From assembly GCF_056746865.1 (NCBI RefSeq), contig NZ_CM163382.1: a DNA stretch of 64,000 nucleotides, one strand, 5' to 3'. Shown here piece by piece: positions 958 to 55,182 of the stretch. Position 1 is the stretch's first letter. Each line of letters opens with the position of its first letter. Below the pieces are notes generated by a model. That model saw only the letters and a list, made by a program, of their open reading frames with translations. It had not been told where the DNA came from and made no database searches. The position numbers and the translations under genes were made by a program.

Positions 958-3813
958 TTACAGCGCGGCGATAACAGCCTGCTGTTCAATCAGCTTCGCT
1001 TTCGCTTCTGCATAGCCTTCCAGCTTTTCACGCTCTTTCGCGATGACCGCTTCCGGTGCGCGGGCGACAAAGCCTTCATTCGCCAGCTTGTTCTCGATAC
1101 GGCTGATTTCGCCTTCGATCTTCGCCACTTCTTTCGCCAGACGCGCCAGCTCATCTTCTTTGTTGATGAGGCCAGCCATCGGGATCAGCAGCTCTGCGCC
1201 GTCGATGATCTTAGTAACGGAAACCGGACCTTTGTCATCGGCAGGCAGCACGGTGATGCTTTCCAGACGCGCCAGCGTTTGCAGGAAGCCACGGTTTTCA
1301 TTTACGCGACGTTCTGCATCCGCGCTGCAACCACGCAGTAGCAGCTCCAGCGGTTTGCCCGGCGCGATGTTCATTTCTGCACGGATGTTACGTACCGCAA
1401 CGATCGCCTGCTTCAGCCACTCTGTGTCGGCCAGTGCGGCTTCATCAACCTGAGATGCATCGTACTGCGGGAACGGCTGCAGCATGATGGTGTCGGCAGT
1501 GATACCGCAAAGTACTTTCACACGCTGCCAGATGGTTTCGGTGATGAACGGAATGATCGGATGCGCGAGGCGCAGCAGACCTTCCAGCACGGTCACCAGC
1601 GTATGGCGAGTACCGCGCAGTTCGGCTTCGGTGCCACCGTTCATTACCGGCTTAGTCAGTTCCAGATACCAGTCACAGAACTGGTTCCAGGTGAACTCAT
1701 ACAGAATGCCTGCGGCGATATCGAAGCGGAAGCTGTCCAGCGCTTCGCGGTACGCTTTGATGGTCTGGTTGAACTCCGCCAGAATCCAGCGATCCGCCAG
1801 CGACAGCGTCATTTCGCCGCCGTTGAAGCCGCAATCCTGACCTTCTGTGTTCATCAGCACAAAGCGGCTGGCGTTCCACAGCTTGTTACAGAAGTTACGG
1901 TAACCTTCCAGGCGTTTCATATCCCAGTTGATATCGCGACCGGTAGAAGCCAGCGCCGCCAGGGTGAAGCGCAGCGCGTCAGTACCGTGCGGTTCAATAC
2001 CGTTCGGGAACTGCTTCTCGGTGCGCTTACGGATTTTGTCCGCCAGCTGTGGCTGCATCATATTGCCGGTGCGTTTTTCCAGCAGTTCTGGCAGCGAAAT
2101 ACCGTCAACCATATCCAGTGGGTCAATAACGTTACCCTTGGATTTGGACATCTTCTGGCCTTCGTCGTCACGAATCAGGCCGGTCATGTAAACAGTGTGG
2201 AACGGCACCTGCGGTTTGCCATTTTCATCTTTGATGAAGTGCATGGTCATCATGATCATGCGGGCAATCCAGAAGAAGATGATGTCGAAACCAGATACCA
2301 TCACGCTGGTTGGGTGGAACTGACGCAGGGCGTCGGTATTTTCCGGCCAGCCAAGGGTAGAGAAGGTCCACAGCGCAGAAGAGAACCAGGTGTCGAGAAC
2401 GTCTTCGTCCTGACGCAGGGCAACGTCGGCACCGAGGTTATTTTCTTTACGCACTTCGTCTTCGTTGCGGCCAACATAAACGTTACCCGCTTCGTCGTAC
2501 CATGCCGGGATTCGGTGACCCCACCACAGCTGACGAGAGATACACCAGTCCTGAATATCGCGCATCCAGGAGAAGTACATGTTTTCGTACTGCTTCGGTA
2601 CGAACTGAATGTCGCCATTCTCAACCGCTTCAACTGCCGGTTTCGCCAGGACATCGGCACGCACGTACCACTGGTCGGTCAGCATCGGTTCGATAACTAC
2701 GCCGCCACGGTCGCCGTAAGGAACGGTCAGGTCGTGCGGTTTAATTTCTTCCAGCAGGCCGAGTGCGTCAACCGCAGCAACGACTGCTTTACGTGCAGCA
2801 AAACGCTCGAGTTTCTGGAACTCTGCCGGGATTTCGCTGGAATAAACGTCAGATTCGTTACCTTTGGTATCGAACACCTGGGCGCTTTCACGGATATCGC
2901 CGTCAAAGGTCAGGATGTTGATCATCGGCAGCGCGTGACGTTTACCCACTTCATAGTCGTTAAAGTCGTGCGCCGGAGTGATTTTCACGCAGCCGGTGCC
3001 TTTTTCCATGTCGGCGTGTTCGTCGCCAACGATCGGAATACGACGGTTAACCAGCGGCAGAATGACATATTTGCCAATCAGATCTTTGTAACGCGGATCT
3101 TCCGGGTTAACGGCTACGCCAGTATCGCCCAGCAGGGTTTCCGGACGGGTAGTCGCAACCACCAGATAATCTTTACCGTCTGCGGTTTTCGCGCCGTCAG
3201 CCAGCGGATAGCGGATGTGCCACATCGAACCTTTTGATTCGCGGTTTTCCACTTCCAGGTCAGAGATAGCGGTGCGCAGTTTCGGGTCCCAGTTTACCAG
3301 GCGTTTGCCACGGTAAATCAGGTCTTCTTTATACAGACGAACGAAAACTTCTTTCACCGCATTGGACAGGCCTTCGTCCATGGTGAAGCGTTCACGCTCC
3401 CAGTCGACGGAGTTGCCGAGACGGCGCATCTGACGGGTAATGGTGCCGCCGGACTCCGCTTTCCATTCCCAGATTTTGTCGATGAAAGCTTCGCGGCCGT
3501 AGTCGTGACGGGTTTTACCTTCTTCTGCGGCAATCTTGCGCTCAACGACCATCTGGGTAGCGATCCCGGCGTGGTCAGTACCGACCTGCCACAGGGTGTT
3601 TTTGCCCTGCATGCGCTGATAGCGGATCATGGTATCCATGATGGTTTGCTGGAAGGCGTGACCCATATGCAAACTGCCGGTGACGTTCGGCGGCGGGATC
3701 ATGATGCAGAAACTTTCCTGGCTTTCATCGCCATTAGGCTTAAAGTAGCCCTGCTTTTCCCAGTGCTCGTAAAGCGGCTGTTCGATATCTTGTGGGTTAT
3801 ATGTCTTTTCCAT
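958..3813 (-). CDS. valS: Valyl-tRNA synthetase
   Basis: 951-aa ORF with class I aaRS HIGH-type motif ([12 protein letters not shown]) and KMSKS motif. Confidence 0.97.
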
Positions 3814-4256
3814 TATTTCCAGGTTGCCGTATTCAGGTTGAAACCAGCCACGCGGTAGGCTTTATAGCGTTCGCGCGCCAGTTGTTTCAGAGAATCTTCA
3901 TAAGGAACGAAGTCTACCACTTCTGTGAAAGCGGTGGCAAAATCTGCAAAGCTTGTTCGCAGACTAATCAATATATCGCGCGGGCTGCTGCTGCGTTTTT
4001 GCGGCCAGGCGATCTCCACCGGCGCACCGCCGCGCGGTCCTTCTCCCGCTAAATTATGCGGAACAAAGCTTTCTGCCGGACGCGCCCACAGGGCTTCATC
4101 CAGCCGGTAAGCCTGCTTTTCATCTTCACAGGCGATGAGCACGCGCTTACCGCTGCGCCAACGTTCTGCGGCAATTTCACACACCAGTTGCTCAACGGCG
4201 CTTAAGCCATCGACGGTGGTGTCATTGTCCAGAAGGTAGAACGTCGCGTTTTTCAT
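3813..4256 (-). CDS. holC: DNA polymerase III chi subunit
   Basis: 147-aa [15 protein letters not shown]...; stop overlaps valS start (ATGA), conserved holC-valS arrangement. Confidence 0.93.
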
Positions 4257-4308
4257 AAATGGGGCTTCTTGTGGTGGATTTAAATACGCATCAGGTATAC
4301 ACCGCAGC

Positions 4309-4510
<202 letters not shown>

Positions 4511-4511
4511 A

Positions 4512-6026
<1,515 letters not shown>

Positions 6027-6289
6027 CTACGCTCCTGAATCTTAAAGACAACGGCGGTGGCTACAGATAGAATTGCAAGCTTTCGTAACTCATGTCCGCT
6101 GTTGCGATGACTTCGTGTTAATCTTAACGTTATTACGGCATTGGCACGTCAGAACAAAATCTGAGAGGTGAATCCGTTGAGTATAATTATCTTAGCGACG
6201 ATTTCGACGACTCAAGAGAATAAATGACGTTTAAGCCATGAAACAAGCTAAAATCCTGCAAAAGACGAGTTTTTACGGGCGTATTTAAA

Positions 6290-7390
6290 GTGATAATCAT
6301 AAGATATCTGGTGCGGGAGACGCTCAAAAGCCAGCTGGCGATACTCTTCATCTTGCTTTTGATCTTCTTCTGTCAAAAGTTAGTGAGGATCCTCGGCGCA
6401 GCGGTTGACGGCGATATTCCGGCGAATCTGGTGCTCTCCCTTCTCGGGTTGGGCGTGCCGGAAATGGCGCAGCTTATCCTGCCATTAAGCCTGTTCCTCG
6501 GGCTGCTGATGACGCTGGGCAAACTGTATACCGAAAGTGAAATTACGGTAATGCATGCCTGCGGCCTGAGCAAAGCGGTTCTGGTGAAAGCGGCAATGAT
6601 CCTTGCGGTATTCACGGCAATCGTAGCGGCGGTTAACGTGATGTGGGCGGGACCGTGGTCATCGCGTCATCAGGATGAAGTGTTAGCAGAAGCGAAAGCG
6701 AACCCTGGCATGGCGGCGCTGGCGCAAGGGCAATTCCAGCAAGCGACTAATGGCAGCTCGGTGCTGTTCATCGAAAGCGTTGACGGCAGCGATTTCAAAG
6801 ATGTGTTCCTCGCGCAAATTCGACCAAAAGGTAATGCACGTCCTTCTGTGGTGGTGGCCGATTCCGGACATTTAACCCAGCTGCGCGACGGCTCCCAGGT
6901 CGTCACTCTCAACCAGGGAACGCGCTTCGAAGGCACTGCATTGTTACGTGATTTCCGCATTACGGACTTCCAGGATTATCAGGCGATCATTGGTCACCAG
7001 GCGGTGGCGCTCGACCCGAACGATACCGACCAGATGGACATGCGCACATTGTGGAACACTGACACCGATCGTGCTCGCGCAGAACTGAACTGGCGTATCA
7101 CGTTGGTATTCACCGTGTTTATGATGGCACTTATGGTCGTACCGCTGAGCGTGGTTAACCCACGTCAGGGACGCGTACTGTCGATGCTGCCAGCCATGCT
7201 GCTGTATCTACTTTTCTTCCTGATCCAGACCTCCCTGAAATCGAACGGCGGTAAAGGTAAGCTGGACCCGACGCTGTGGATGTGGACCGTTAACCTGATT
7301 TATCTGGCTTTAGCGATTGTTCTCAACCTTTGGGACACCGTGCCGGTCCGCCGCCTGCGCGCCAGTTTTTCGCGTAAAGGAGCGGTGTGA
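6290..7390 (+). CDS. lptF: LPS export ABC transporter permease LptF
   Basis: 366-aa membrane protein, GTG start, 1-bp overlap with downstream lptG. Confidence 0.9.
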   Translation: MIIIRYLVRETLKSQLAILFILLLIFFCQKLVRILGAAVDGDIPANLVLSLLGLGVPEMAQLILPLSLFLGLLMTLGKLYTESEITVMHACGLSKAVLVKAAMILAVFTAIVAAVNVMWAGPWSSRHQDEVLAEAKANPGMAALAQGQFQQATNGSSVLFIESVDGSDFKDVFLAQIRPKGNARPSVVVADSGHLTQLRDGSQVVTLNQGTRFEGTALLRDFRITDFQDYQAIIGHQAVALDPNDTDQMDMRTLWNTDTDRARAELNWRITLVFTVFMMALMVVPLSVVNPRQGRVLSMLPAMLLYLLFFLIQTSLKSNGGKGKLDPTLWMWTVNLIYLALAIVLNLWDTVPVRRLRASFSRKGAV

Positions 7391-8472
7391 TGCAACCTTT
7401 TGGCGTACTTGACCGCTATATCGGTAAAACTATTTTCACCACCATCATGATGACACTGTTCATGCTGGTGTCGCTGTCGGGCATTATCAAGTTTGTCGAT
7501 CAGCTGAAAAAAGCCGGGCAGGGGAGTTACGACGCGTTAGGCGCAGGAATGTATACCTTGCTGAGCGTGCCGAAAGATGTGCAGATCTTCTTCCCGATGG
7601 CGGCTCTGCTTGGGGCGTTGCTTGGTCTTGGGATGCTGGCGCAGCGCAGCGAACTGGTGGTGATGCAGGCTTCTGGTTTTACCCGTATGCAGGTGGCGCT
7701 GTCGGTGATGAAAACCGCCATTCCGCTGGTCTTGCTGACGATGGCGATTGGCGAATGGGTCGCGCCGCAGGGCGAGCAGATGGCGCGTAACTACCGTGCG
7801 CAGGCGATGTACGGCGGCTCGTTGCTCTCTACCCAGCAAGGCTTATGGGCGAAAGATGGCAACAACTTCGTCTACATTGAGCGGGTTAAAGGTGACGAAG
7901 AGTTAGGTGGCATCAGCATTTATGCCTTTAACGAGAATCGTCGTCTGCAATCCGTACGCTATGCCGCTACTGCGAAGTTTGACCCGGAACATAAAGTCTG
8001 GCGTCTGTCGCAGGTTGATGAATCTGATCTGACCAATCCGAAACAGATTACCGGTTCGCAGACGGTGAGCGGCACCTGGAAAACCAACCTCACGCCGGAC
8101 AAACTGGGCGTGGTGGCGCTGGACCCGGATGCACTCTCTATCAGCGGTTTGCACAACTATGTGAAGTATCTGAAGTCGAGCGGTCAGGATGCCGGACGTT
8201 ATCAGCTCAACATGTGGAGCAAAATCTTCCAGCCGCTATCTGTGGCGGTGATGATGCTGATGGCGCTGTCGTTCATCTTTGGCCCACTGCGTAGCGTACC
8301 GATGGGCGTGCGTGTGGTCACCGGTATCAGTTTCGGTTTTGTCTTCTACGTACTGGACCAGATCTTCGGCCCGCTGACGTTGGTTTATGGCATCCCGCCG
8401 ATCATCGGCGCACTGTTGCCAAGCGCCAGCTTCTTCTTAATCAGCCTGTGGCTGTTAATGAGAAAATCGTAA
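7390..8472 (+). CDS. lptG: LPS export ABC transporter permease LptG
   Basis: 360-aa membrane protein MQPFGVLDRYIGK...; ATG overlaps lptF stop (TGATG). Confidence 0.9.
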   Translation: MQPFGVLDRYIGKTIFTTIMMTLFMLVSLSGIIKFVDQLKKAGQGSYDALGAGMYTLLSVPKDVQIFFPMAALLGALLGLGMLAQRSELVVMQASGFTRMQVALSVMKTAIPLVLLTMAIGEWVAPQGEQMARNYRAQAMYGGSLLSTQQGLWAKDGNNFVYIERVKGDEELGGISIYAFNENRRLQSVRYAATAKFDPEHKVWRLSQVDESDLTNPKQITGSQTVSGTWKTNLTPDKLGVVALDPDALSISGLHNYVKYLKSSGQDAGRYQLNMWSKIFQPLSVAVMMLMALSFIFGPLRSVPMGVRVVTGISFGFVFYVLDQIFGPLTLVYGIPPIIGALLPSASFFLISLWLLMRKS

Positions 8473-8487
8473 CCGAATGAACGAATA

Positions 8488-8514
8488 AAGGGAGCGAAAG
8501 CTCCCTTTATTATT
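8488..8514 (+). terminator. Intrinsic terminator after lptG
   Basis: Hairpin AAAGGGAGC-GAA-GCTCCCTTT followed by T-rich tract. Confidence 0.6.
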
Positions 8515-8583
8515 GTTAGCAAAGTGTGCTTCGTTCATTCCTGAAAAATAATTAAAATTCAATATATTGCAGTGGGGTGGGCA

Positions 8584-8612
8584 TGATAAGACGCGCCAGC
8601 GTCGCATCAGGC
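8584..8612. repeat. Single REP element
   Basis: TGATAAGACGCGCCAGCGTCGCATCAGGC matches REP palindrome family seen at 4.3 kb. Confidence 0.6.
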
Positions 8613-8632
8613 AAAGACAAATCTCGCCTGAC

Positions 8633-10135
8633 TTACCTTCTTCTCCCCCCCAGCAAACTCCCCAACATCCCGCGTACAATCTGATTCGTCACTTGGCGAG
8701 CGGCGCTTTTGGCCATTGTTTGCACCACACCATCTTTCTTCCCGCCGCGTGGTCCGGTAGTGCCGAACAAAATATCCTTCAATCCACCAAGAATGCCGTC
8801 ATCCACCGCTACCTCTTTCCCTTTCGCGGGAGGATTATTTTGCTGCTCGGTACTGGCCTGAAAGCCTTTTTGCAACATCTCATAGGCGGATTCCCGGTCC
8901 ACCTCATCCTCATATTTGCCATACACCGGAGAGTGATTAATCAAGCCATTACGCTCATCTTCCGTCACCGGCCCCATCCGCGAACAAGGCGCGATCACCA
9001 TCGCACGCTCCACCACAGAAGGGCTTCCTTTCGCATCCAGAAAAGAGATCAACGCCTCGCCGGTGCCCAGTTCCTGAATCGCCTTTTCGGTATCAAACGC
9101 CGGATTGGCCCGCATGGTTTGCGCCGCTGCCTTCACTGCTTTCTGATCTTTTGGCGTAAAAGCCCGCAAAGCATGTTGAACGCGATTACCGAGCTGCCCG
9201 AGCACATTATCCGGAATATCAGACGGGTTTTGCGAAACGAACCAGACGCCCACGCCTTTTGAGCGAATAAGCCTTATCACCTGCTCAATCTTATCCAGCA
9301 GTACCTGCGGGGCATCGTTAAACAGCAGATGTGCCTCGTCGAAGAAAAACACCAGTTTTGGTTTCTCCAGATCGCCCGCTTCCGGCAATTGTTCATACAA
9401 CTCTGAAAGCATCCACAGCAGGCTGGCGGCGTACAGTTTCGGCATCTGATAAAGTTTCTCGGCGCTGAGGATATTGATAACGCCTTTACCGTTGGCATCG
9501 GTGCGCATCCAGTCTTTGATATCCAGCATCGGCTCACCAAAGAAGTGTGCTGCGCCTTGCTGTTCCAGCGACAACAGCCCGCGCTGGATGGCACCAACCG
9601 ATGCGCTACTGATATTACCGTACTGATTCTGGAAGGATTTGGCGTTATCGCCGATGTACTGGGTAATTGCCCGCAGATCTTTAAAGTCGAGCAGTAACAG
9701 CCCCTGATCGTCAGCAATGCGGAAGATGATATTCAGCACGCCAGATTGCACATCGTTGAGATTCAACAGTCGTGCCAGCAACAGCGGCCCCAGATCCGAA
9801 ACCGTCGCCCGCACCGGATGGCCTTTCTCGCCAAAGATATCCCACACCACCACCGGATTGGCATGCGGTTGCCAGTCATTGACGCCGATATTTTTAAGCC
9901 TTGCGAGCAGTTTTTCCGACACCGTTCCTGCCTGCGCGACGCCGGTCAGATCGCCTTTCACATCAGCCATAAACACCGGCACGCCGATTTCCGACAATGA
10001 CTCCGCCAGTTTTTGCAGCGTAACGGTTTTACCCGTCCCCGTTGCGCCGGTAATCAGCCCATGACGGTTAGCCATTCCCGGCAGTAAAAACAGTTCTGTG
10101 TCCGGCGTGCGGGCAATTAACAGGGGTTCACTCAT
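8633..10135 (-). CDS. yjgR: DUF853-type P-loop NTPase
   Basis: 500-aa ORF with Walker A GATGTGKT. Confidence 0.85.
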
Positions 10136-10212
10136 GAGATATCCTCCAGTTTCCTGCCTGGAGTATAGGCAACGTCCGGCAAAGAGAATACGTGTAATGA
10201 AGAGAAAATAAC

Positions 10213-11211
10213 CTAAAGCGTGTTGCCGTGATAAATCTGATACCCGAGGTCAACAGTGTTGTGGTTGTGATCGTTATTTTTAATTTTGCTCAGCAACATT
10301 TGGGCGGCCATCCGACCAATATCAAAACGGGGAGTAATTACGCTGGCGAGGCTTGGGATCATTTGCCTGCCAATCTCCAGCCCATGAAAACCCGCAATGG
10401 AAATTTGTTCTGGCACGGCGAGGTTTCGCTCGCGGCACAGCAGAAGCGCACCCATCGCAATATCGTCATTGGTGCAAAATACACCGTCTAAATCCGGGTT
10501 TGCGCTAAGGGCATCACGCATTAACTGCATTCCTAAATGAATGGATGAGATGGCGCGTGGATTCATGCGTAATGGGGAAAGATTATGCAGCATCATCGCA
10601 TCGCAATACCCCTGATAACGCTGTTCATCGCGGGTGTCATCTTTGGAACCGAGATACAGAATTTTGTGCCTGACTCGCTTCTCCAGCATGGTACACACCA
10701 TGTCAAAAGCGGCCTGCCGATTATCAAAACCGACCTCCATATCCAGCCGTTCTCCCTGTACATCCATCAATTCCACGACCGGAATGGTGGCTGAACGCAG
10801 AAATTTCACCGTCCTGATGGTGTGATATTTTTCCGAAAGTATAATCCCGTCAATGTTATAAGAGAGCAGGTTAATCACCGACTCTTCTTCGGAATCGCGA
10901 TCGTAATTGTAATTAGCAATAAGGGTCTGATAATTATGCTCAGAGGTGACGGATTCTATTCCCGCGAGAATGTCAGCGAAGAGTTGATTTTGAAATGACG
11001 GAATCAAGATACCGAGGGTATAACTTTGTGCATTCAACAACATGCCGGGAGCGCGATTAGGGATATAATTGATCTCTTCCATAATTTTGGCGATGCGCTC
11101 GCCTGTTTCCTTTGCCACCTTTTTCGGCGAGCGGATATAACGACTCACGGTCATTTTTGTTACGCCAGCCAGCGTAGCGATATCCTGTAAAGAAATTCTG
11201 TGATTGCGCAT
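10213..11211 (-). CDS. idnR: LacI-family transcriptional regulator of idonate catabolism
   Basis: N-terminal HTH ([21 protein letters not shown]) plus periplasmic-binding-fold body; start taken at MRNHRISLQ (ORF track start 11241 is an upstream in-frame codon). Confidence 0.88.
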
Positions 11212-11277
11212 AACTTCTCCCAACGTCGGGGGAATCTTCAATCTTCCCCCGAAACTACATCACAATATTTTATTCTT

Positions 11278-12597
11278 TCAGTGCAATACGGCGTTAATGG
11301 CTAACACGCCCAGCAAACCCATAATAGAAATAAGGGTTTCCATCACCGTCCAGGTACGCAACGTTTCACCAACCGTCAGATTAAAATACCCTTTAAATAG
11401 CCAGAAGCCAGGGTCGTTTACGTGTGACGCGATCACGCTGCCCGCACCGGTTGCCAGTACCATTAAAGCGGGATCGGCATGGGTAACGTTGATAATCGGC
11501 AACACCACACCCGCGGTGGTAATGGCCGCGACGGTGGCAGAGCCCAGAGCGATACGCAACAGCGCCGCAACAGTCCAGCACATCAATAACGGCGAAAGTG
11601 TAGTTCCGGTCATTAAGTGTGAAATATAGTGCCCGACACCGCTATCTACTAATACCTGCTTAAACGCGCCGCCGCCAGCGATAATAAACACAATCATCGC
11701 GATAGCGCCTATAGAATCCCCAATGATATCCATGATTTGCTCGATGGTGCGTCCATTACGTCGGCCCAGTGTGAAAATCGCAATAACAATGGCAATAAAC
11801 AGCGCAACGGCAGGGTTACCGACAAATTCAAAGAAGAGGCGCACGGTGTTAGTTTTCGGTAACGTAATTTCACAAACGGCGGCGATAGCCATCAGGATGA
11901 CCGGGATCACGGCAGCGAAAATACTGTTCCAGAAGGAGGGCATCTCCTCTTCGCTAAACAGATGAGGATTAAATAAGCCTTCCGGTGGTGCTTTCTCAAA
12001 GCGAGTTAGCAGTTTAGAAAACAGCGGTCCTGCGACAATAACTGTCGGAATGGTAATGATAAATCCATACAGTAAAGTCGTTCCGAGATTAGCCTCAAAG
12101 ATAGTCGCGATGGCAGTAGGCCCTGGATGTGGCGGCAGAAAACAGTGGGTTACAGAGAGCGCTGCTACCATTGGTACGCCAACATACAACAGGGGTAATC
12201 CTGATGATGCTACGATGGTAAATACCAACGGCAACAGCAGGACAAAACCCACTTCAAAAAACATGGCGAGGCCCACAACCAGACCGGTGATCACTAGCGC
12301 CCATTGCACGCGTTTTTTACCAAAAGTAGCAATCAGCGTAGTGGCGATACGTTGTGCCGCACCCGTATCAGAAATCAGCTTGCCTAACATGGCCCCGAAA
12401 CCGAGGATCATTGCCAGCCCGCCGAGCGTGCTGCCGATACCATTTTGTATAGAGTGCAGGACGGCCTGTGCATCCATCCCTTCGGCAAATCCGACGACGG
12501 CAGCTACCAGAACGAGGGCAATAAAGCCGTTAACTTTAAAGCCGATCATCAGGATAAGAAGCAGCGCGACGCCTGCCGCAATAATGATTAATGGCAT
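11278..12597 (-). CDS. idnT: GntP-family gluconate/idonate:H+ symporter
   Basis: 439-aa polytopic membrane protein MPLIIIAAGVALLL... Confidence 0.9.
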   Translation of the reverse strand: MPLIIIAAGVALLLILMIGFKVNGFIALVLVAAVVGFAEGMDAQAVLHSIQNGIGSTLGGLAMILGFGAMLGKLISDTGAAQRIATTLIATFGKKRVQWALVITGLVVGLAMFFEVGFVLLLPLVFTIVASSGLPLLYVGVPMVAALSVTHCFLPPHPGPTAIATIFEANLGTTLLYGFIITIPTVIVAGPLFSKLLTRFEKAPPEGLFNPHLFSEEEMPSFWNSIFAAVIPVILMAIAAVCEITLPKTNTVRLFFEFVGNPAVALFIAIVIAIFTLGRRNGRTIEQIMDIIGDSIGAIAMIVFIIAGGGAFKQVLVDSGVGHYISHLMTGTTLSPLLMCWTVAALLRIALGSATVAAITTAGVVLPIINVTHADPALMVLATGAGSVIASHVNDPGFWLFKGYFNLTVGETLRTWTVMETLISIMGLLGVLAINAVLH

Positions 12598-12658
12598 AGT
12601 CTTTATCTCTTATTAGTGCCAGAAAAGCAGCGCTTTCGCGCTGCACGTAGGGGGGCTG

Positions 12659-13423
12659 TTAAACAGCCACTAACATGCCGCCATCAACAAACAACAGGTG
12701 GCCGTTTACGAAATCAGAGGCTTTTGAAGAAAGGAACACCGCAGCACCAATCAGTTCCTGCGGATCTCCCCAGCGTGCGGCGGGGGTCCGTTTGCACAAC
12801 CAGGCGGTGAAGGCTTCGTCCTCAACCAGTGCTTTAGTCATTTCTGTTTTGAAATAGCCCGGCGCAATACCGTTGACCTGAATATTGTGGCGCGCCAGCT
12901 CGACGCACATGCCGCGGGTGAGCATTTTTACCGCCCCTTTCGATGCGGCATAAGGGGTGATGGTGTCACGTCCCAGTTCGCTTTGCATCGAGCAAATATT
13001 AATAACTTTACCTGCCTTGCGTTCAACCATGTGACGAGTTACCGCTTGCGATACCAGGAACACGGCGGTCTGGTTTACTGCGATCACATCATTCCACTCT
13101 TGTTCAGGGAACTCAGTAAAAGGATGACGGCGCTGGATACCGGCGTTATTCACCAGCACATCAATGGGGCCGATGTCCTTTTCGATATGTTCAACGGCGG
13201 CATCAATTTCATGTTTATGAGTAACATTAAAAGGTGCGGCAACGGCCTGAATACCCTCCTGGTGGAGTTTTTCTACAGCAAGTTCTGCGCGTTCGGCAGT
13301 AATATCATTAATAATTATTTGTGCGCCATATTTACCCAGGCCGGTTGCCAGTAAAAAGCCAATGCCCTGTGCTGAACCGGTAATCAAGATATTTTTTCCT
13401 GCCAGTGAAAATAGATCGTTCAT
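12659..13423 (-). CDS. idnO: 5-keto-D-gluconate 5-reductase (SDR family)
   Basis: 254-aa ORF with SDR glycine motif ILITGSAQGIG and catalytic YAASK. Confidence 0.9.
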   Translation of the reverse strand: MNDLFSLAGKNILITGSAQGIGFLLATGLGKYGAQIIINDITAERAELAVEKLHQEGIQAVAAPFNVTHKHEIDAAVEHIEKDIGPIDVLVNNAGIQRRHPFTEFPEQEWNDVIAVNQTAVFLVSQAVTRHMVERKAGKVINICSMQSELGRDTITPYAASKGAVKMLTRGMCVELARHNIQVNGIAPGYFKTEMTKALVEDEAFTAWLCKRTPAARWGDPQELIGAAVFLSSKASDFVNGHLLFVDGGMLVAV

Positions 13424-13446
13424 TGTATTATTCCTTTATTTATCTC

Positions 13447-14478
13447 TTAGAAAACAAGCTGGACTTTTGCTGCCTGGGTTTTATCACCGGCGAAACGTAG
13501 CGCCTCTTCCAGGTCAGTGAAGGGATATTCAGCACTCAGTAAAGGCAGTGGATTGATAACGCCATTCGCCAGCCATGACACTGCGGTATTAAATTCGCTG
13601 GTAAAACGGAAAGAGCCTCTGAGTGAAATCTCCTTACCAATCAACGTCATCATTGGGAATTCTGCCATCGCGCCTCCCATACCTACCTGCACCATTACGC
13701 CGCGTGCACGAGTGACCTCCAGACAGGTATTCACTGATGAAGGATGACCGGACACTTCAAAGCTGACATCGAAATAGCCTTTTTCCGCTTTCCAGTGATC
13801 CATGTCGTCGTTTTGTGGGTTTACGAGCACATCCGCCCCCATCTCTTTGCCCAGCGAAAGGGAACGGGGACTCACATCAGCACAGACAATTTCCGCGGCC
13901 CCCAGTGTTTTCACTGCACTGACAATCAGGCAGCCAATGGGTCCAACACCGGAAATAAATACTCGCTTGCCCTGTAACTCGCCGGCCTGATGTGCGGCAT
14001 GAATCGCGACGGCTAAAGGTTCGGCAAAAGCCATAACCTTTTCGTCAGCTTTGGCCGGATAAGGGACACATTGCGACGTTTCGACCATTTTATAACGGGT
14101 AAAACCACCATCAACATGAGGGAAATACATGGCACTGCCAAAAAAACGCATATCTGTACACTGATTCTCGTTATGTTCAATGCAGTATTTGCAGTGACCG
14201 CACGGTTTAGACGGATTAATGGCTACCGTTTGCCCTTCATGTAATTCTGATGAGTCGCTATGAATAACTTTACCGATAACTTCATGACCTAACACCATCG
14301 GTGCCTTTATCATGAAATTACCTACTTTTCCTTCCTGATAATAATGTAAATCGGAACCGCAAATTCCACCTCGGGTTATTTGTACTAATGTTCCATTATT
14401 ATTCCAATCTATCGTCTGCTCGGTAACGGCAACAGTTTTCTTGCCCGCAACAACGCAGGACTGTGTTTTCACTTGCAT
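13447..14478 (-). CDS. idnD: L-idonate 5-dehydrogenase (Zn-dependent MDR family)
   Basis: 343-aa ORF with GHE zinc-ADH motif and Cys-rich structural zinc site (CGHCKYCIEHNENQC). Confidence 0.9.
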   Translation of the reverse strand: MQVKTQSCVVAGKKTVAVTEQTIDWNNNGTLVQITRGGICGSDLHYYQEGKVGNFMIKAPMVLGHEVIGKVIHSDSSELHEGQTVAINPSKPCGHCKYCIEHNENQCTDMRFFGSAMYFPHVDGGFTRYKMVETSQCVPYPAKADEKVMAFAEPLAVAIHAAHQAGELQGKRVFISGVGPIGCLIVSAVKTLGAAEIVCADVSPRSLSLGKEMGADVLVNPQNDDMDHWKAEKGYFDVSFEVSGHPSSVNTCLEVTRARGVMVQVGMGGAMAEFPMMTLIGKEISLRGSFRFTSEFNTAVSWLANGVINPLPLLSAEYPFTDLEEALRFAGDKTQAAKVQLVF

Positions 14479-16476: not shown

Positions 16477-16561
16477 GCCGAAGTGGCGAAATCGGTAGAC
16501 GCAGTTGATTCAAAATCAACCGTAGAAATACGTGCCGGTTCGAGTCCGGCCTTCGGCACCA
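16477..16561 (+). tRNA. leuX: tRNA-Leu (anticodon CAA), 85 nt with encoded CCA
   Basis: GCCGAAGTGGCGAAATCGGTAGACGC...CGGTTCGAGTCCGGCCTTCGGCACCA; anticodon loop TTCAAAA; long variable arm typical of tRNA-Leu. Confidence 0.95.
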
Positions 16562-40812: not shown

Positions 40813-40816
<4 letters not shown>

Positions 40817-41334
40817 AACCCATACTCCAGACGGAACAGCAGGCAGTGCTCGACGGCTTTCGCCACGTATTTTTTCACGGAGCTGATGGAAACACCGAGT
40901 TTGTGCGCAATCTCGCTGTATGTCAGACCATCCAGTTGCGAAAGCAGAAACGCTTCACGTGTTTTGCCGTTTAGCCCGTCCAGCATGCTGTCGAGGAGTT
41001 GTAGGGTCTCGAGTTGGCTTTCGCGTTCCTCAGGTGAAGGCGCTCCCCCCTCCGGCATAAGCGCCAGCATCTCCAGATACGCTTTTTCCAGCGCGTTTCG
41101 GCGAAACAGGTCCACCATCACGCGTTTGGCGATAGTGCAGAGGAAGGAGCGAGGATCGCGGATCGTCGAGAGCGTTTCGCTGACCATTACCCGCAAAAAA
41201 GTGTCCTGGGCAATGTCATCTGCATCAAAAGCAGACTGGAGTTTGCGCGTCAGCCAGCTTTTCAACCAGCCGTGATGTGTGCCATAAAGCGACTCGAACG
41301 TTAAGGAAGCTGTGGTAGTGGCGCGGTCAGACAT
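40813..41334 (-). CDS. fecI: ECF sigma factor FecI
   Basis: 173-aa sigma-70 region 2/4 protein (…[10 protein letters not shown]…, C-terminal HTH …[22 protein letters not shown]…). Confidence 0.95.
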
Positions 41335-41400: not shown

Positions 41401-41625
41401 GGAAATAAAATTGTTTCCAATAGACATTTTTAACATGTTGTTTTTCTAAGTGTTATAAGGTAGGTATAAAATGGGATGGAGCCTCTGCTTCTGGCATGTG
41501 TCGGTCAGAATGACTCATGATGTGGTCTGCTATTATTGACATCCTCACTGCCCTAAAGGATGGGGATTTCGGTAATGCTGCCAACTTACTGATTTAGTGT
41601 ATGATGGTGATTTTAAGGTGCTTGC

Positions 41626-41901
41626 GTGGCTTCCATTTCCATCAGATGTCCTTCCTGCTCCGCTACTGAAGGCGTGGTGCGTAACGGCAAAAGCACTGCC
41701 GGACATCAGCGCTATCTCTGCTCTCCTTGCCGTAAAACATGGCAACTACAGTTCACTTACACCGCCTCTCAGCCCGGTAAGCACCAGAAAATCATTGATA
41801 TGGCCATGAATGGCGTCGGATGTCGCGCCAGTGCACGCATTATGGGCGTTGGCCTCAACACGGTTTTACGTCACTTAAAAAACTCAGGCCGCAGTCGGTA
41901 A
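41626..41901 (+). CDS. insA: IS1 InsA (zinc-finger/HTH repressor)
   Basis: 91-aa [26 protein letters not shown]... Confidence 0.85.
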
Positions 41902-42323
41902 CCTCGCGCATACAACCGGGCAGTGATGTGATTGTCTGCGCTGAAATGGACGAACAGTGGGGCTACGTCGGTGCTAAATCACGTCAGCGCTGGCTGTTTT
42001 ACGCGTATGACAGGATACGGAGGACGGTTGTGGCGCACGTCTTCGGTGAACGCACTCTGGCCACACTGGAGCGTCTTCTGAGCCTGCTGTCGGCCTTTGA
42101 GGTCGTGGTATAGATGACGGATGGCTGGCCGCTGTATGAATCACGCCTGAAGGGAAAGCTGCACGTTATCAGCAAGCGTTACACTCAGCGCATTGAGCGA
42201 CATAATCTGAATCTGAGACAACATCTGGCAAGGCTGGGACGGAAGTTACTGTCGTTCTCAAAATCGGTGGAGTTGCATGACAAGGTCATCGGGCATTATC
42301 TGAACATAAAACACTATCAGTAA
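41820..42323 (+). pseudogene. insB: IS1 InsB frame interrupted by an in-frame TAG (42111-42113)
   Basis: Track splits InsB into 41820-42113 and 42114-42323; ...[20 protein letters not shown]... where canonical InsB has ...VVIWMTDGW. Confidence 0.75.
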
Positions 42324-42406
42324 GTTGGAGTCATTACCTCCTCCCGAACTCAAAGCTATCATACAGATAATTACTGGTTAACCCTATATAGGGCATTTTA
42401 AAGTGT

Positions 42407-42800
42407 TGTGATCTTACCCAGCAATAGTGGACACGCGGCTAAGTGAGTAAACTCTCAGTCAGAGGTGACTCACAAGACAAAACAGTTTCAACCAGTAAAA
42501 AAACGTAAACACCATTCGCATGAATTTCGTAGTTAAGATCTGAAGCTTGCAGAATGCATCGGTGTTACTGCCGGAGTCCGTGAACTTAGTCTGCATGAAT
42601 CACCACAGCTTTACATCTGTCGCAGTAAACAGCAAAATCAGCAAACTTACTTAATTATATCGAGTGCGATTACAATCGCTGGCGATGGTACAGTTGGTGT
42701 GGCGGTCTCAGTCCGGAACAATTTGAAAATCAGAATCTCACTTAAAACGGCATCCATTTTACAAAAGATGGCCGTCTGTGTATTTGTAATGAATACCTTC
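42407..42800 (+). pseudogene. Degenerate IS3 left end and orfA remnant
   Basis: TGATCTTACCCAGCAATAGTGGACACGCGGCTAAGTGAGTAAACTCTCAGTCAGAGGTGACTCAC matches IS3 terminus; start codon position reads AAG and frame has stops. Confidence 0.6.
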
Positions 42801-43084
42801 TACATGTTTAGAGTGCATAATCCACGACAAGGCGATATCCTAAAAATTAGCTAGCAGGCAACTTTGATGGCATAGATAATGTTTTTAGTAAAAAAGAGTT
42901 GACTGAATATAATACAGCCTCTTCCTACATAAGAAGGAATGTGCTCACAAAAAAAAACCATTAGTCTGCTTCCTGTTCTTACAATAATCAGTATTATGTA
43001 TTTTATTTATATAGCAAAATATGCTTGTTACACCTGTCATAATTAGGCATGGTAAAATTATTGACTGAACCCTGGGGGAGAAAG

Positions 43085-43342
43085 ATGCACAGTGATTATT
43101 ATAATATGATTTTTGGTGAAAAATTGGCCAATATTTTATATGAAGCTAACTCTCAATTTTTTTACGAGAGAAATGTCATAGAAGAGGCAGTCAACGCTTT
43201 ATTCTGTGAGCGTGAAATAATAAACAACAAGAACATAATAAAGAAGCTGATGTTCTTTTTGTCAGATGTTAATCACACCAAGAAAGATGTTGTTCAGAGC
43301 GCACTTAATATTATCATTGACATTACATCAGGTGATATTTGA
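43085..43342 (+). CDS. Small hypothetical protein (85 aa) in AT-rich DNA
   Basis: ATG 8 nt after GGGGGAGAAAG RBS; N/I/K-rich product; no recognisable domain. Confidence 0.35.
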   Translation: MHSDYYNMIFGEKLANILYEANSQFFYERNVIEEAVNALFCEREIINNKNIIKKLMFFLSDVNHTKKDVVQSALNIIIDITSGDI

Positions 43343-43499
43343 GATTTTACATAAAAGATAATCTCTCAAGGAGTCTTATCTGAAAACGAAATATATAGTC
43401 CCTCTCGTTTTGTAATATCGATTGGCTTTGTTGAATCGGTTACGTACCCCGGAGCCGGTCATATTTTCAGGTAATACACACGCTTTCAGACATTTCGGC

Positions 43500-43800
43500 T
43501 TTCGTCATTTTTGTATCATGGGCATAGCTTCTGCTACCTGACCATCATAATCACGCAGCTTCAGTGAAGCAGTGACCACCTGTTTAACCCGGTGTATCGT
43601 TATGATCTTATCCAGCAATTGAACCGCCCCGGGTTTCCTGGAGAGTGTTTTATCTGTGAACTCAGGCTGCCAGATCATCGTTTCCGATGGAAGCATAATA
43701 AGCTTTTTCTGCTTCTGCCGGTGGGATATGGCCCTGCCTTTCCAGCAATCGTCGATTGTTATACCAGTCCACCCACGTGAGTGTGGTCAGCTCATCATAC
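43500..43800 (-). pseudogene. 3' fragment of an IS3-family orfB transposase
   Basis: Minus-strand translation ...ELTTLTWVDWYNNRRLLERQGHIPPAEAEKAYYASIGNDDLAA-stop (stop at 43663). Confidence 0.5.
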
Positions 43801-44074
43801 TGACACGTGCATTACCCCTACCGCGATAATGCAACCGTACAATATAGGGCGTTTCCTAAACGCAGCCCTCATCACTCCAATCCAACAAGACACAGCATTT
43901 TTGATCACGAAGAAAGACAAATAATTTCCGTAAATGTTTCCGTTATTACAAATAACAACAGTGTTTTACATTTCTTTGGCCTCAGGCCCGCGCATGTTGC
44001 CATTCGATGTCATTTTCCTGACTCGTTTCTTCTTTATGGTGTAGTGTGATCTTCACTTTATGGATGCTAACAAT

Positions 44075-45433
44075 ATGAAAAGAAAAATTATTCCCGTGCT
44101 AATCGGTTGTACGCTCTCTTTCTCTGCCCTGGCGGCACAACCTACGGCTGAGCGCTATGTCGTCAGTTTTCCAGAAGGCACGCACGTGAACTACGCCGGC
44201 GCATTTGCCAGTGCATTCCCGAACGGCCTTCCGGTTGGGATAGGTTCTGGCCTGCTGTTCACCGGTAAACAGGGCGATGCCCTGACATTCGCAACCATTA
44301 CCGATCGCGGTCCGAACGCGGATTCACCGAAAGAGGGGAAAAACGAAACTAAAATTTTCGTTACGCCAGATTTCGCGCCGCTGCTGATGACGATTCGTGT
44401 ACAAAACGGCAAAGCGGAGGCCATCGATCCCCGTCCTCTGCATGACGATAAAGGCGCGATCAACGGTCTGCCGCTGGCAAGCGACGTGATTGGCTCCACC
44501 AATGAAGTGGCCTTCAGCGACACGTTACATAGACTGAAGGGGGATAATCGCGGGCTGGATACGGAAGGGATCACTCCGGATGGTAAAGGAGGTTACTGGC
44601 TGTGCGATGAGTATGGCCCGTTCCTGATTAACATCGACAGTAAAGGGAAAATCCTGGCAATCCACGGTCCGCAGGCGGCGGAAGGGGAAAAAGCGATTGC
44701 GGGCGGTTTGCCAAATATCCTCAAATGGCGTCAGGCGAACCGCGGCTTTGAAGGCCTCACCCGTATGCCGGACGGGCGTATTATTGTCGCCGTGCAAAGT
44801 ACGCTGGATATCGACGCTAAGAGCAAGAAAAAGGCGCTGTTTACGCGTCTGGTGAGCTTCGATCCGGCAAGCGGAAAAACCGCGATGTACGGTTATCCTA
44901 TCGACAGCGCGGCCTACAGCAAAAACAGCGACGCTAAAATCGGAGACATCGTGGCGCTCGATAACCAGCACATCCTGCTGATCGAACAGGGAAGAGATAA
45001 AAACAACAGAATGCGTAACCTGATTTACGAGGTCGATCTCAATAAGGCGAGCGACCTGTCAGGCTTCGACAAGCCGGGTGAGTATCCGGAGTTTGATGAT
45101 GAGAAAACCCTGTCACAGCGCGGCATTACCCTTGCGCAGAAAACGCAGGTTGTTGATCTGCGCTCCTTGGGCTGGCAGCAGGAGAAGGCTGAAGGGTTGG
45201 CGCTGATCGACAGCAAAACGCTGGCGGTGGCGAACGATAACGACTTTGGCGTGAAGGTGGCGATGCAACATCCGGTCGAGGGCAAGACATTCAAGGATTA
45301 TCGGGTGAACGCGGAAGGAAAGCTGACGCTTGACGACAAGCAGGTTGAAACGACCCTCAGAGTGAAGCCACTGGAGAAACCGGAGTCTGACAGTGAACTG
45401 TGGATTGTGACGCTGCCGGAAGCGTTGAAATAA
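44075..45433 (+). CDS. Secreted protein, phytase-like / esterase-like beta-propeller family (tentative)
   Basis: Signal peptide MKRKIIPVLIGCTLSFSALAAQP; 452-aa product; family call from overall pattern only. Confidence 0.45.
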   Translation: MKRKIIPVLIGCTLSFSALAAQPTAERYVVSFPEGTHVNYAGAFASAFPNGLPVGIGSGLLFTGKQGDALTFATITDRGPNADSPKEGKNETKIFVTPDFAPLLMTIRVQNGKAEAIDPRPLHDDKGAINGLPLASDVIGSTNEVAFSDTLHRLKGDNRGLDTEGITPDGKGGYWLCDEYGPFLINIDSKGKILAIHGPQAAEGEKAIAGGLPNILKWRQANRGFEGLTRMPDGRIIVAVQSTLDIDAKSKKKALFTRLVSFDPASGKTAMYGYPIDSAAYSKNSDAKIGDIVALDNQHILLIEQGRDKNNRMRNLIYEVDLNKASDLSGFDKPGEYPEFDDEKTLSQRGITLAQKTQVVDLRSLGWQQEKAEGLALIDSKTLAVANDNDFGVKVAMQHPVEGKTFKDYRVNAEGKLTLDDKQVETTLRVKPLEKPESDSELWIVTLPEALK

Positions 45434-45671
45434 GTTTATAAGGTACGGACAGCAGTATCGCTTAGTTTTTCAAATTCATGTATGTGAACAATATTGGGGT
45501 TCCGGCGTAGACCCCCAATGAAAGCGTCACCACGTGAAAACATGCCTGCACGGTTTACACGTCATCCCATGGTGGCAGCCGGTTAACTTTCCTGCGCCAC
45601 CAGTGGAAAAAGGCCATAAGCAGTCCGAACAAAAGTAAGCGTACAGCGAGGGCCGTATTGACGGGGATGTG

Positions 45672-47057
45672 TTATTCAGCTGGCAGTGCTATGCGCCACG
45701 GAAGCAGTTCGCTGACCCGGTTGACCGGCCAGTCTGCTATGACGCCAAGCACATGGCGAAGGTAGCTTTCTGGATCCACGTCATTCAGTTTGCACGTCCC
45801 GATCAGGCTGTACAGTAGCGCTCCCCGCTCACCACCATGGCCAGAGCCGAAGAACAGGGTCTTCATCTTTTCACGCAACCAGCTTTCCAGGGATTTCAAC
45901 AGCGGTTTCGTTTTTCGCTGACGTTCAGCAAGCCGCTGCTCTGCCGGCATTCCCCTTATATCCGCCTCTATGGCGTACAACTGACCGATCTGCTCTAGGG
46001 CTTCTTCCGTCAGTGCTGACGGGATGCGGACGTGCACATCGTGGATCTTTCGGCGGGCATGAGCCCAGCAGGCAGCTTCCGTTATCCCACCATTGCGATA
46101 CAGCTCGTTGAACCCGGCGTACGCATCCGCTTGCAGCACACCGCTGAAGCAAGCAAGATGAGTCTGCGGATGGATGCCTTTTCTGTCCGGGCTGTAAGCG
46201 AACCACACTGCAGGTGCCAACGCTGACCCGGCATTGCGGTCATCACGAACATACGCCCACAACCGCCCGGTCTTCGTCTTCTTATTACCCGGCAGCAGTA
46301 CCTGGACCGGGGTATCATCGGCATGGAGTTTGCCGTCAGTCATGACATAGCCATGAAGCGCCTCTTCCAGCGGAGACAGCAGCCGGCAGCATGCATCCAC
46401 CCAGCCCGACAGCAGTGAACGGCTCAGCTCCACACCTTGCCGGCCGTATATTTCTGACTGGCAATACAGCGGGGTGTGCTCTGCATACTTCGAGGTCAGC
46501 ACGCGGGCCAGCAGCCCCGGTCCGGCGATACCCCGCTCGATGGGCCGCGAAGGTGCAGGTGCCTGCACGATGGCATCGCACTGAGTACAGGCATGTTTTT
46601 CCCGTACCGTCCGGATAACCCGGAAGGCGCTACGCATCAACTCCAGCTGTTCGGCGGTATCCTCGCCCAGATAGCTCAGTGAACCGCCGCAGTTCGGGCA
46701 GCACGGCGCCGCAGGCAACAGTCGCTTTTCGTCACGGGGTAGTGATTCAGGGAACGGCTTACGGGTGCGGGTCTGACGCAACGGACGCTGTACTGCCGGG
46801 TCATACACCCTACCAGTCAGCGTATCGCTCTCTTTCTGAAGCCGGTTCAGATCGGCTTCCATTTGTGCGATACGGCGGGAGACTTTTTCGGAACGACTGC
46901 CGAAGTTCATCCGGCGGAGTTTATCCAGCTGCGCCTGCAGATGGTCTATTTCGCGCTCCCGGTTGCTCAGCTTTTCCTGCAGGGCGTGGATCAGCGCTTC
47001 CTGTTCGGCCAGGCGCTGTTTTAGCAGGAAGATGTCGTCAGAAGAGATGTCGTTCAT
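45672..47057 (-). CDS. IS66-family transposase TnpC (orf3)
   Basis: 461-aa ORF; N-terminal leucine zipper, zinc motif CPNCGG...CTQCD, C-terminal ...[19 protein letters not shown]... Confidence 0.85.
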
Positions 47058-47106
47058 AAGCCCGTATTTTACCGGGCTTATTCTGTGACAACCAGGATAA
47101 AGAGAT

Positions 47107-47454
47107 TTACAGCATGGTCAGGGAGGTCAGCAGCCGCTTGGGCTGTCGCCAGTCGATACCTTCCAGCAGCATCGCCAGCTGCGCCTGCGTAAGGAACACT
47201 TTGCCATCACGGGCTGACGGCCAGGCGAAGCGCCCACGCTCCAGCCGTTTGGTCAGGAGGCACAGTCCGTCACCGGTGGACCACAGCAGTTTAACCTGAC
47301 TGCCGCTGCGGCCCCGGAAAATGAAAACATGGCCGGACATGGGATCGTCTTTCAGCGCCGTTTGTACTTTCGCAGCCAGGCCGTTGAAGCCATTTCTCAT
47401 ATCGGTGATACCGGCAACCAGCCAAATTTTGGTCCCGGAAGGTAACGGGATCAT
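47107..47454 (-). CDS. IS66-family TnpB (orf2)
   Basis: 115-aa [30 protein letters not shown]...; 4-bp overlap with orf1. Confidence 0.85.
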
Positions 47455-47852
47455 CGCTTCAGTTCCTGTATCAGCAGAGTCAGGAGCTTTTCGCTGACAT
47501 TGCCATTGAAGCGGAGCGTCCCGTGCCGGAACGTTACCTCACAGCTGATACTGAGGGTTTCCGGGTCCTCTGCGAGCGATTCTGGCTGTTCGGCAGCTGC
47601 ATCGAGAGTCACAGGAAGTAGCTGGGGGCTCTCTGAAGAAGGTAATAGCAGCTTTCCCTCGCGCCATTGTTGTCGCCATTTGAACAACAGATTGGCGTTA
47701 ATGCCATTTTCAAGAGCAAGTTTTGAGATGGATATCCCGGGTTCACAGGAGGCAGCAACGAGCAGCTGTTTAAATTCGGGAGGATAATTAGGGCAGCCTT
47801 TTCGCCTGCCGGGAGTCACATTTTTCTGCATATCTGACACTTTGGTTCCCAC
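47451..47852 (-). CDS. IS66-family TnpA (orf1, HTH)
   Basis: 133-aa ORF ...YPPEFKQLLVAASCEPGISISKLALENGINANLLFKWRQQ... Confidence 0.8.
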   Translation of the reverse strand: MGTKVSDMQKNVTPGRRKGCPNYPPEFKQLLVAASCEPGISISKLALENGINANLLFKWRQQWREGKLLLPSSESPQLLPVTLDAAAEQPESLAEDPETLSISCEVTFRHGTLRFNGNVSEKLLTLLIQELKR

Positions 47853-48185
47853 TACTTATTTGGTGGACACCACTTTGTCTAATTCGTCAGATTCTGACCA
47901 GACGGTTCAGGCTGTACGCTTACCACTATTTTATCCCTGTTGAATTTGGTTAAGCCGGTGCAGACGCGCCGGGAAACGCACACCTGAACCGGTACAATAA
48001 AATACAATACAACCCCCTGTTACTGGAGATACGAATGGAATGACGAGGCAGCCTGTCAGTCACAGGGGGCTGTTGGCATAAAATCAATGGAAAGGCCACC
48101 AACACCGGAATTAAGCTCCACAGTCCCCGCACTGGCAATCCATTCCCGGGAAAGGCATCACCGCAAACTGCTCCGGAGGCAACCA

Positions 48186-48620
48186 TTACAGCCTCTGTAA
48201 CGGATTATCAGCCCTGGCATCTTCCGACGGCACCTCCTGCCGCCCCCACGCCCTGCTGTATACCCCGGTACCGCAGCGTGGGCAGCACTTTTCCCCCTCA
48301 TAATCTTCGTCACACATCACACAAAACCACTTTCTCACCTTCACCGTATAATCCGGAACCGTCATGCCCTGCAGATGCAAACGACGGGCCTCTTTCTCTG
48401 CCGGGTCAAGCCAGGTACATCGCAGCAGGATTTTTTCAGCGACAGTCATCTGGTCATGTTCAAACCACGGTGGTTGTCCGTCATTGCCCCGCTGAAGTGT
48501 TAACGGGCATCCACAGGACACACAGCACAAAACGTCCTGTCGGTTGTGCTTCGCAGCTTCTTTCGCCGTAACAAAATGGCCTTTGCTGTCATTCGCCATA
48601 TAACAGTTCAGAATTCGCAT
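48186..48620 (-). CDS. Hypothetical zinc-ribbon protein (paralog B, about 144 aa from MRILNCYMAND)
   Basis: Cys clusters CCVSCGC and CVMCDEDYEGEKCCPRCGTG; shared PWFEH motif with upstream paralog. Confidence 0.5.
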   Translation of the reverse strand: MRILNCYMANDSKGHFVTAKEAAKHNRQDVLCCVSCGCPLTLQRGNDGQPPWFEHDQMTVAEKILLRCTWLDPAEKEARRLHLQGMTVPDYTVKVRKWFCVMCDEDYEGEKCCPRCGTGVYSRAWGRQEVPSEDARADNPLQRL

Positions 48621-55083: not shown

Positions 55084-55123
55084 TTCATCACCGATATTCA
55101 TACATCTGAATATCGGTGATGAA
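55084..55123. repeat. Perfect inverted repeat, 17-bp arms with 6-bp spacer
   Basis: TTCATCACCGATATTCA tacatc TGAATATCGGTGATGAA in the convergent intergenic region. Confidence 0.9.
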
Positions 55124-55182
55124 ATCCCCATAATAATCAATCATCTAAGTCTGAAGCATAATGGAGAAAAACTGCTCACCGG

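Follow-up and report, generated by a model that had tools for sequence, protein, structure and literature searches.

IS1 integrates with a stagger of 8 or 9 bp (PMC12428005), and for copies that lack the duplication of their target, recombination between IS copies and adjacent deletion or fusion are the standard and well documented accounts (PMC11708052). Adjacent deletions and IS x IS recombination of the IS1/IS26 type leave a single IS copy with unrelated flanks and with breakpoints at the IS termini, and alternative or nested joins can be anchored on one IS end (PMC11708052). The IS1 copy beside the fec operon of Escherichia coli shares all of these features and differs from the described systems in that the anchor itself is transposase-defective, so that later events need IS1 transposase in trans or homologous recombination. 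Earlier work has already described the KpLE2/fec region as unstable and heavily loaded with IS elements (PMC4951805; PMC5885034; PMC3032704). Our data show that this conserved, defective IS1F copy at the border of the fec operon lies on a rearrangement seam that was inherited, and not at a simple insertion site.

The window, the whole stretch of 64,000 nucleotides that was analysed, is a segment of an E. coli chromosome spanning the leuX (KpLE2-type) island. From left to right, the island consists of the integration site tRNA-Leu(CAA) (16477-16561), a P4-type integrase, IS4, nanXY, a cluster of IS fragments, fecEDCBARI on the minus strand, ykiE and IS1. The tRNA-Leu(CAA) site, the adjacent P4-type integrase and the nanXY/fec/yjh/sgc cargo are those of a KpLE2-type leuX island; yjhU-sgc lies beyond the end of the window (as seen in the identical genome NZ_CP033850.1) and K-12 was used for comparison. 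The right end of the fec module is formed by fecI (40813..41334, minus strand; ORF list and RefSeq annotation), the first gene of fecIR-fecABCDE. The fecI upstream region carries the small-protein gene ykiE (41471..41539, plus strand; annotation transferred from NZ_CP033850.1 and K-12) and, at 41538..41570, a degenerate hairpin that is the edge of the module and the left flank of IS1F, ending with GGGGATTTC. On its far side, fec is bounded by fragments of ISEc52, IS30, IS600 and IS911. An IS1 composite transposon carrying fec was considered and rejected, as the 64-kb window has a single IS1 with two ends.

IS1F is located within the 3' arm of the hairpin upstream of fecI. A Klebsiella IncF fec locus that lacks IS1F shows the hairpin with a perfect stem of 16 bp (GACATCCTCCCCGCCC TTTA GGGCGGGGAGGATGTC, local positions ~5945-5985), whereas the hairpin of E. 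coli is degenerate; homology between the window and the Klebsiella locus ends at ~41566, about 4 bp short of IS1. The native sequence past the IS1F site was sought in the same locus, which continues for ~275 bp up to an IS21 relic. These ~275 bp are absent beside fec in E. coli genomes and the ancestral right flank was not recovered.

The element itself (41571..42338, plus strand) has 768 bp, with its left inverted repeat (IRL) at 41571-41593 and its right inverted repeat (IRR) at 42316-42338. The two repeats mismatch at three positions and are the sole IS1 ends in the 64-kb window (chance expectation 0 matches); the size of ~768 bp and the imperfect inverted repeats of ~23 bp, starting GGTRATG, are typical for the IS1 family. 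The same is true for the coding region, which has the Pfam domains Zn_ribbon_InsA, HTH_Tnp_IS1 and DDE_Tnp_IS1 and the insA/insB' organisation with a -1 frameshift at an A6C motif (AAAAAAC, 41877-41883). While insA (41626-41901) is intact, the transposase frame is broken in insB' by a TAG amber stop at 42111-42113, which divides the DDE_Tnp_IS1 match at profile position 61/63 and is annotated by PGAP as 'internal stop'. The element is 100% identical (768/768, amber stop included) to the annotated IS1F of K-12 MG1655, the insA7/insB7 pseudogene copy of the KpLE2 element that adjoins fecI; there are 71 differences to an IS1A copy. The IS1F of the window is thus a pseudogene copy that is unable to produce its own transposase, and its present role is confined to providing portable homology and two IS1 ends. 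For the K-12 copy, transposition was undetectable (PMC12428005).

The 9 bp adjacent to the element are GGGGATTTC on the left and TCCTCCCGA on the right. An earlier note on this DNA had stated that the flanks lack a target duplication and had proposed that two formerly separate island segments were deleted or fused by IS1; it had named, as evidence against itself, a 9-bp duplication at redefined IS1 ends or the same junction in strains lacking IS1. We scanned both ends with k = 7-14 and offsets of +/-3 bp and found no duplication, the best match being 5/10. Thus, the 8-9-bp direct duplication of IS1 is absent, which concerns the origin of the flanks and not the assignment of the element to IS1. 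Elsewhere in the window, the 9-mers recur at 47776-47784 and 55121-55129 (minus strand), which is no more than expected by chance, and no IS1 end is adjacent to these copies. The K-12 IS1F, which has the same left junction with ykiE-fecI and the same orientation as the window copy, is likewise without duplication (flanks GGGGATTTC / GACCATGTT).

The right flank could be assigned: the 70 bp between IS1F and the following IS3 relic (42339..42408, minus strand) derive from the interior of an omptin (ompT-like) gene, corresponding to about codons 193-215 of 317. The IS1F IRR truncates it on the C-terminal side and the IS3 IRL on the N-terminal side. The fragment translates to HFKMPYIGLTSNYLYDSFEFGR, has 95.8% nucleotide identity to plasmid omptin (ompT) genes, and its 23 amino acids match the Pfam Omptin profile with 24.0 bits (cut-off 22.6; profile positions 162-183 of 283). 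By coding homology it belongs to the omptin (OmpT/Pla) outer-membrane protease family, but it is a fragment only and no function is possible. This identity of the spacer had been overlooked by the earlier note. In RefSeq, a 63-bp 'hypothetical protein' (WP_113705808.1; 42334-42396, minus strand) reaches from the IS1F IRR into the omptin fragment; it is almost certainly a spurious ORF. With a hairpin from upstream of fec on the left and the middle of an omptin ORF on the right, IS1 therefore joins unrelated DNA.

The IS3 end, which had been placed 68 bp past IS1, is indeed present but starts at 42409, at a distance of 70 bp. It is part of an internally deleted IS3-like relic (42409..~42775, plus strand; terminal repeat TGATCTTACCC at 42409), identified by alignment and BLAST to K-12 IS3A: IS3 positions 1-235 align to 42412-42646 with 88.7% identity and positions 1131-1242 to 42651-42762 with 83.9% identity. 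Thus, both ends of the element are retained while ~895 bp of the interior are missing. The terminal repeat TGATCTTACCC, followed by orfA and IS3 homology, identifies it as a member of the IS3 family. Its description as degenerate, with a mutated start codon and in-frame stops, was accurate: orfA has AAG in place of its ATG start at 42474, and 20 codons further on the frame is interrupted by TAA.

Beyond this relic lie a gene of the ymgB/ariR family (43049..43342, plus strand; Pfam YmgB and plasmid synteny, the block adjoining IS1 also on IncF plasmids), a fragment of an IS5/IS1182 transposase (43467..43597, minus strand), at the position of which a Salmonella IncF plasmid has a full IS5, and a second IS3-family relic (43617..43793, minus strand). 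The latter is the true left boundary of the CP4-type module, which contains a phytase-like gene, IS66, alpA and Ag43 (flu); its first intact gene is the phytase-like esterase gene (44060..45433, plus strand; annotation and Pfam Phytase-like, 148.6 bits). Strain SCU-123 has the region corresponding to window 43617-48501 (IS3-type relic, phytase-like gene, IS66 onward) beside unrelated genes and without fec. There are therefore three segments: fec with IS1F, a small plasmid-like block (42339-43616) of omptin fragment, IS3 relic, ymgB/ariR-like gene and IS5 fragment, and the CP4-type module from 43617. The earlier note had seen only two segments, with a different, AT-rich module of phytase-like, alpA and flu genes to the right. 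The joining of separate segments by IS1 holds and the module is present, but it begins at 43617, and only ~42-44 kb of the window is AT-rich.

The block was further reduced in ST131-type genomes (EC958), which have lost ~42447-43616 (~1.17 kb) between two IS3-type inverted repeats. This deletion removes the ymgB/ariR-like gene and the IS5 fragment and ends at the 43617 boundary; the omptin fragment of the EC958 type is 3 bp shorter on the IS3 side. We considered this layout as a second IS1-anchored deletion and rejected it: the IS1-omptin junction is unchanged and the loss lies between IS3-type repeats.

A comparison with strains that carry the modules separately, as suggested in the earlier note, was possible not only for the CP4-type part (SCU-123) but also for the junction itself, as each half is found with different partners. 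In K-12, the IRR of IS1F next to fec meets not omptin but the end of a sugar-transporter gene: it abuts the last 58 bp of this GRP-family gene, just downstream of yjhU. The same gene is intact in window-type genomes, 25,685 bp right of IS1F, and the K-12 arrangement therefore arose from theirs by a deletion anchored exactly at the IS1F end; the 25.7 kb that were lost include the CP4-type module, Ag43 and an mtnK-mtnA-aldolase-transporter cluster. In strain 2015C-3163, the IRR of the fec-linked IS1F abuts a fragment of a phosphoethanolamine-transferase gene near an integrase at tRNA-Phe (pheU).

The other half, IS1 with the omptin fragment, the IS3 relic and the ymgB/ariR gene, is present in mosaic accessory regions, bounded by IS elements, of the IncF plasmids p89_MLI108-3, p89_MLI23-1 and pZ1323SSL0011-2, with 94.7-99.6% identity to the window. 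One of the three, p89_MLI108-3, has the whole fec operon on the left, like the window, and this fec-IS1F-omptin arrangement is 99.6% identical over 9.6 kb. Left partners on IncF plasmids can also be evgSA or, on a Salmonella plasmid, a fimbrial gene, and the block ends at IS1A or IS5, whereas it ends at the CP4-type module in the window. In contrast to the window copy, the IS1 copies of these plasmids have an intact insB (TGG in place of TAG). Two of the three plasmids also differ from the window by an extra C at the junction: in the plasmid lineage, where evgSA or the fimbrial gene is the left partner, the IRR is followed by CTCCTCCCG, the full 9-bp target, and in the fec lineage it is followed by TCCTCCCG, 8 of those 9 bp.

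Plasmid p89_MLI108-3 has in addition a unit of ~4.8 kb (local ~9590-14384; IS5075, a metallo-hydrolase, a regulator, an ester cyclase and a recombinase), which interrupts the omptin fragment after 50 bp, and ~20 bp of the fragment (window 42389-42408) are unaccounted for. On IncFIB plasmids, the two-component genes evgS-evgA have a full IS1F on one side and, on the other, an inverted IS1F truncated to positions 1-364 (in one plasmid at local 3046-8768); this segment looks like an IS1F-mobilised unit.

The IS1 copies at the site are not all of one allele. The amber codon TAG is present in all chromosomal copies that we inspected (window, K-12, O26, EC958, KL53, 2015C-3163) with the exception of 18AR0845, while plasmids have TGG; this difference between plasmids and most chromosomes is the sole polarity marker for the direction of transfer between the two. 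The IS1 of the Salmonella IncF plasmid (local 4401-5168) is a mosaic of IS1F and IS1A, with 45 differences from IS1F that are concentrated at positions 345-654. In strain 18AR0845 (local 4322-5089), the same two flanks, fec and omptin, enclose a third IS1 allele, which has an intact transposase and shows 55 differences from IS1F and 57 from IS1A (7% divergent from both). Such mosaic or replaced alleles imply gene conversion or recombination between IS1 isoforms, and it is therefore evident that homologous exchange between IS1 copies acts on the junction.

To search for the join without IS1, we used a chimera of left and right flank as an empty-site query. A contiguous IS1-free join of fec and omptin was not found with this query: 111 genomes matched at >=80% coverage, and the top match, the one inspected, still holds an internally deleted IS1 of 605 bp. 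This is strain 19KM1776 (local 3201-3805), in which the IS1F variant lacks positions 437-598 and the IS3-like element that comes next is nearly full-length, with the ATG to AAG change already present; the 111 genomes could belong to this type. A potential counterexample was strain fS54a, where IS1 is missing between fec and the IS3 relic. This strain has lost 831 bp (local ~3990-4005; window 41578-42410), comprising IS1F positions 8-768 and the omptin fragment, but the initial 7 bp of IS1F (GGTAATG) remain, joined to the IS3 end via a TG microhomology. Because of this IRL scar, the absence of IS1 is the result of a later, secondary deletion, and the same junction was thus found in no strain lacking IS1.

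An ancestor that carries the target duplication was equally not found in E. coli genomes and metagenome scans. With a chimera of the C-terminal omptin part, the target and the IS1F IRL as query, this junction was present at 0 places in E. coli genomes, meaning no simple insertion of IS1F into omptin, although the query did bring up the junction of truncated ompT with IS1A on ColV plasmids. Metagenome scans for the predicted ancestral junctions, IRR with GGGGATTTC and omptin target with IRL, gave 0 matches each. A scan of genome contigs for the left flank returned one chance match, in an archaeal MAG.

Among 5426 complete E. coli genomes, 2750 have the fecI upstream flank, 2596 the fec-IS1F junction, 2064 the IS1F-omptin junction and 357 the K-12 junction; the full 2-kb arrangement of the window is present in identical form in 1473. 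The fec operon is thus coupled to IS1F in 2596 of the 2750 fec-positive genomes. The seam is old and inherited, is shared by ~38% of complete E. coli genomes as well as by IncF plasmids, and was not formed in this genome.

The proposal of an IS1-mediated deletion or fusion of formerly separate segments is supported by the absent duplication, the unrelated flanks, the separate occurrence of the halves and the failure to find an IS1-free join. The class of mechanism can be kept while the event has to be moved to before this genome, and we are confident that the join depended on IS1 and is older than this genome. For the specific route, we favour homologous recombination between two IS1 copies, to which we assign about an even chance. 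The first step would have been the insertion of an IS1 into an omptin gene on a plasmid, with CTCCTCCCG as its 9-bp target. This copy would then have recombined homologously with an IS1F resident beside fecI, and the exchange of left arms would have set fec beside the omptin/IS3/ymgB block and parted the copies of each duplication. Later, the block would have become a neighbour of the CP4-type module within the leuX island, the amber stop in insB would have emerged in the chromosomal lineage, and the seam would have been inherited thereafter, with later events, such as the 25.7-kb deletion of K-12, beginning exactly at the right end of IS1F. One insertion with subsequent arm swaps accounts for the three left partners on a single right junction as well as for the mosaics, and IS1 x IS1 exchange is visible at the site in the Salmonella mosaic and the 18AR0845 allele. 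Less easily accommodated are the failure to find the ancestor with its duplication, in E. coli genomes or metagenomes, and the 1-bp difference between IRR followed by CTCCTCCCG and IRR followed by TCCTCCCG, which requires a later slip in the C run or an independent event.

The main competitor is one-ended replicative transposition, in which the IRR of the IS1F beside fecI attacks the omptin target, either within one molecule as an adjacent deletion or between molecules as a replicon fusion. In all variants the breakpoints lie exactly at the IS1 ends, the plasmid copies at the junction carry an intact transposase, and the IRR-anchored 25.7-kb deletion of K-12 resembles a classic adjacent deletion. 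Of the 9-bp target hit by an IS1A on ColV plasmids, 8 bp form the start of the right flank, which would make this a preferred IS1 target, and staggers of 8 or 9 bp (PMC12428005) could explain the 1-bp difference by independent events. However, three left partners on the same IRR-omptin junction demand separate events or extra rearrangements at the left end, and the mosaic and replaced IS1 alleles are left unexplained. Moreover, the chromosomal copy is transposase-dead, with no detectable transposition in K-12 (PMC12428005), and any event after the rise of TAG needs transposase in trans. We regard this route as possible but on the doubtful side. Recombination and one-ended transposition yield identical end products, and the choice of sub-mechanism therefore follows from parsimony.

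IS-independent illegitimate recombination, or capture of IS1 at a double-strand break with coincidental IS1 ends, is improbable. Placement of IS copies without target duplication at the centres of rearrangements has been proposed (PMC11708052) and microhomology deletion does occur at the locus (831 bp via TG in fS54a), but both breakpoints match complete IS1 inverted repeats to the base, and the same is true for the joins of K-12, the pheU island and the plasmids. A simple IS1 insertion with point mutations that have erased its 9-bp duplication would fit an old and defective element with an amber stop; it is effectively excluded, as IS1 joins two unrelated sequences (fec-upstream hairpin and mid-omptin ORF, best repeat 5/10) that are found apart in other replicons, and we consider it highly improbable. 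Misassembly or a chimeric contig across the repeated IS1, a common source of assembly error, has a negligible probability and was excluded by the identical 2-kb junction in 1473 complete genomes from independent projects and by junction halves in >2000.

On ColV/ColBM plasmids (local ~5170-5197), an opposite-facing IS1A truncates ompT at the same 9 bp (…GAAACTCCCCCCG followed by the IRR) as in window 42339-42347. As in the window, the IRR is joined to this omptin stretch (CTCCCCCCG vs CTCCTCCCG); unlike in the window, the element is IS1A and not IS1F, the C-terminal half of the gene is retained and the orientation of IS1 is reversed. The IRR end is used in both junctions, and they are therefore not reciprocal products of one event, a relation that we considered and rejected. 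The shared 9 bp are either an IS1 hot spot with an independent hit or a coincidence of ~1 in 1000. In a wider and rather unlikely reading, the transposase-dead IS1F is a recurrent anchor of rearrangements mobilised by the transposase of other IS1 isoforms, and the omptin CTCCNCCCG is a true hot spot hit independently by IS1A and IS1F. The 25.7-kb deletion of K-12 and the join of the pheU island both begin exactly at the IS1F IRR and both bear the amber allele; within this reading, the ends of IS1F were therefore mobilised by the transposase of other isoforms.

Whichever route was taken, the finding is a real IS1-mediated module seam of a known kind, with no new element type or mechanism. IS1F beside fec is already part of the K-12 reference annotation, and PGAP has marked it in thousands of genomes; a published dissection of the fec-IS1F-omptin junction was not found in the literature. 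The value is practical and concerns annotation and comparative genomics: the KpLE2 region of the K-12 reference derives from the window arrangement by loss of 25.7 kb, and the fec operon is nearly always accompanied by IS1F. The fec operon is a fitness factor in mastitis and urinary isolates, and the presence of the fec-IS1F-omptin seam on conjugative IncF plasmids provides a concrete route for the exchange of fec between plasmid and chromosome.
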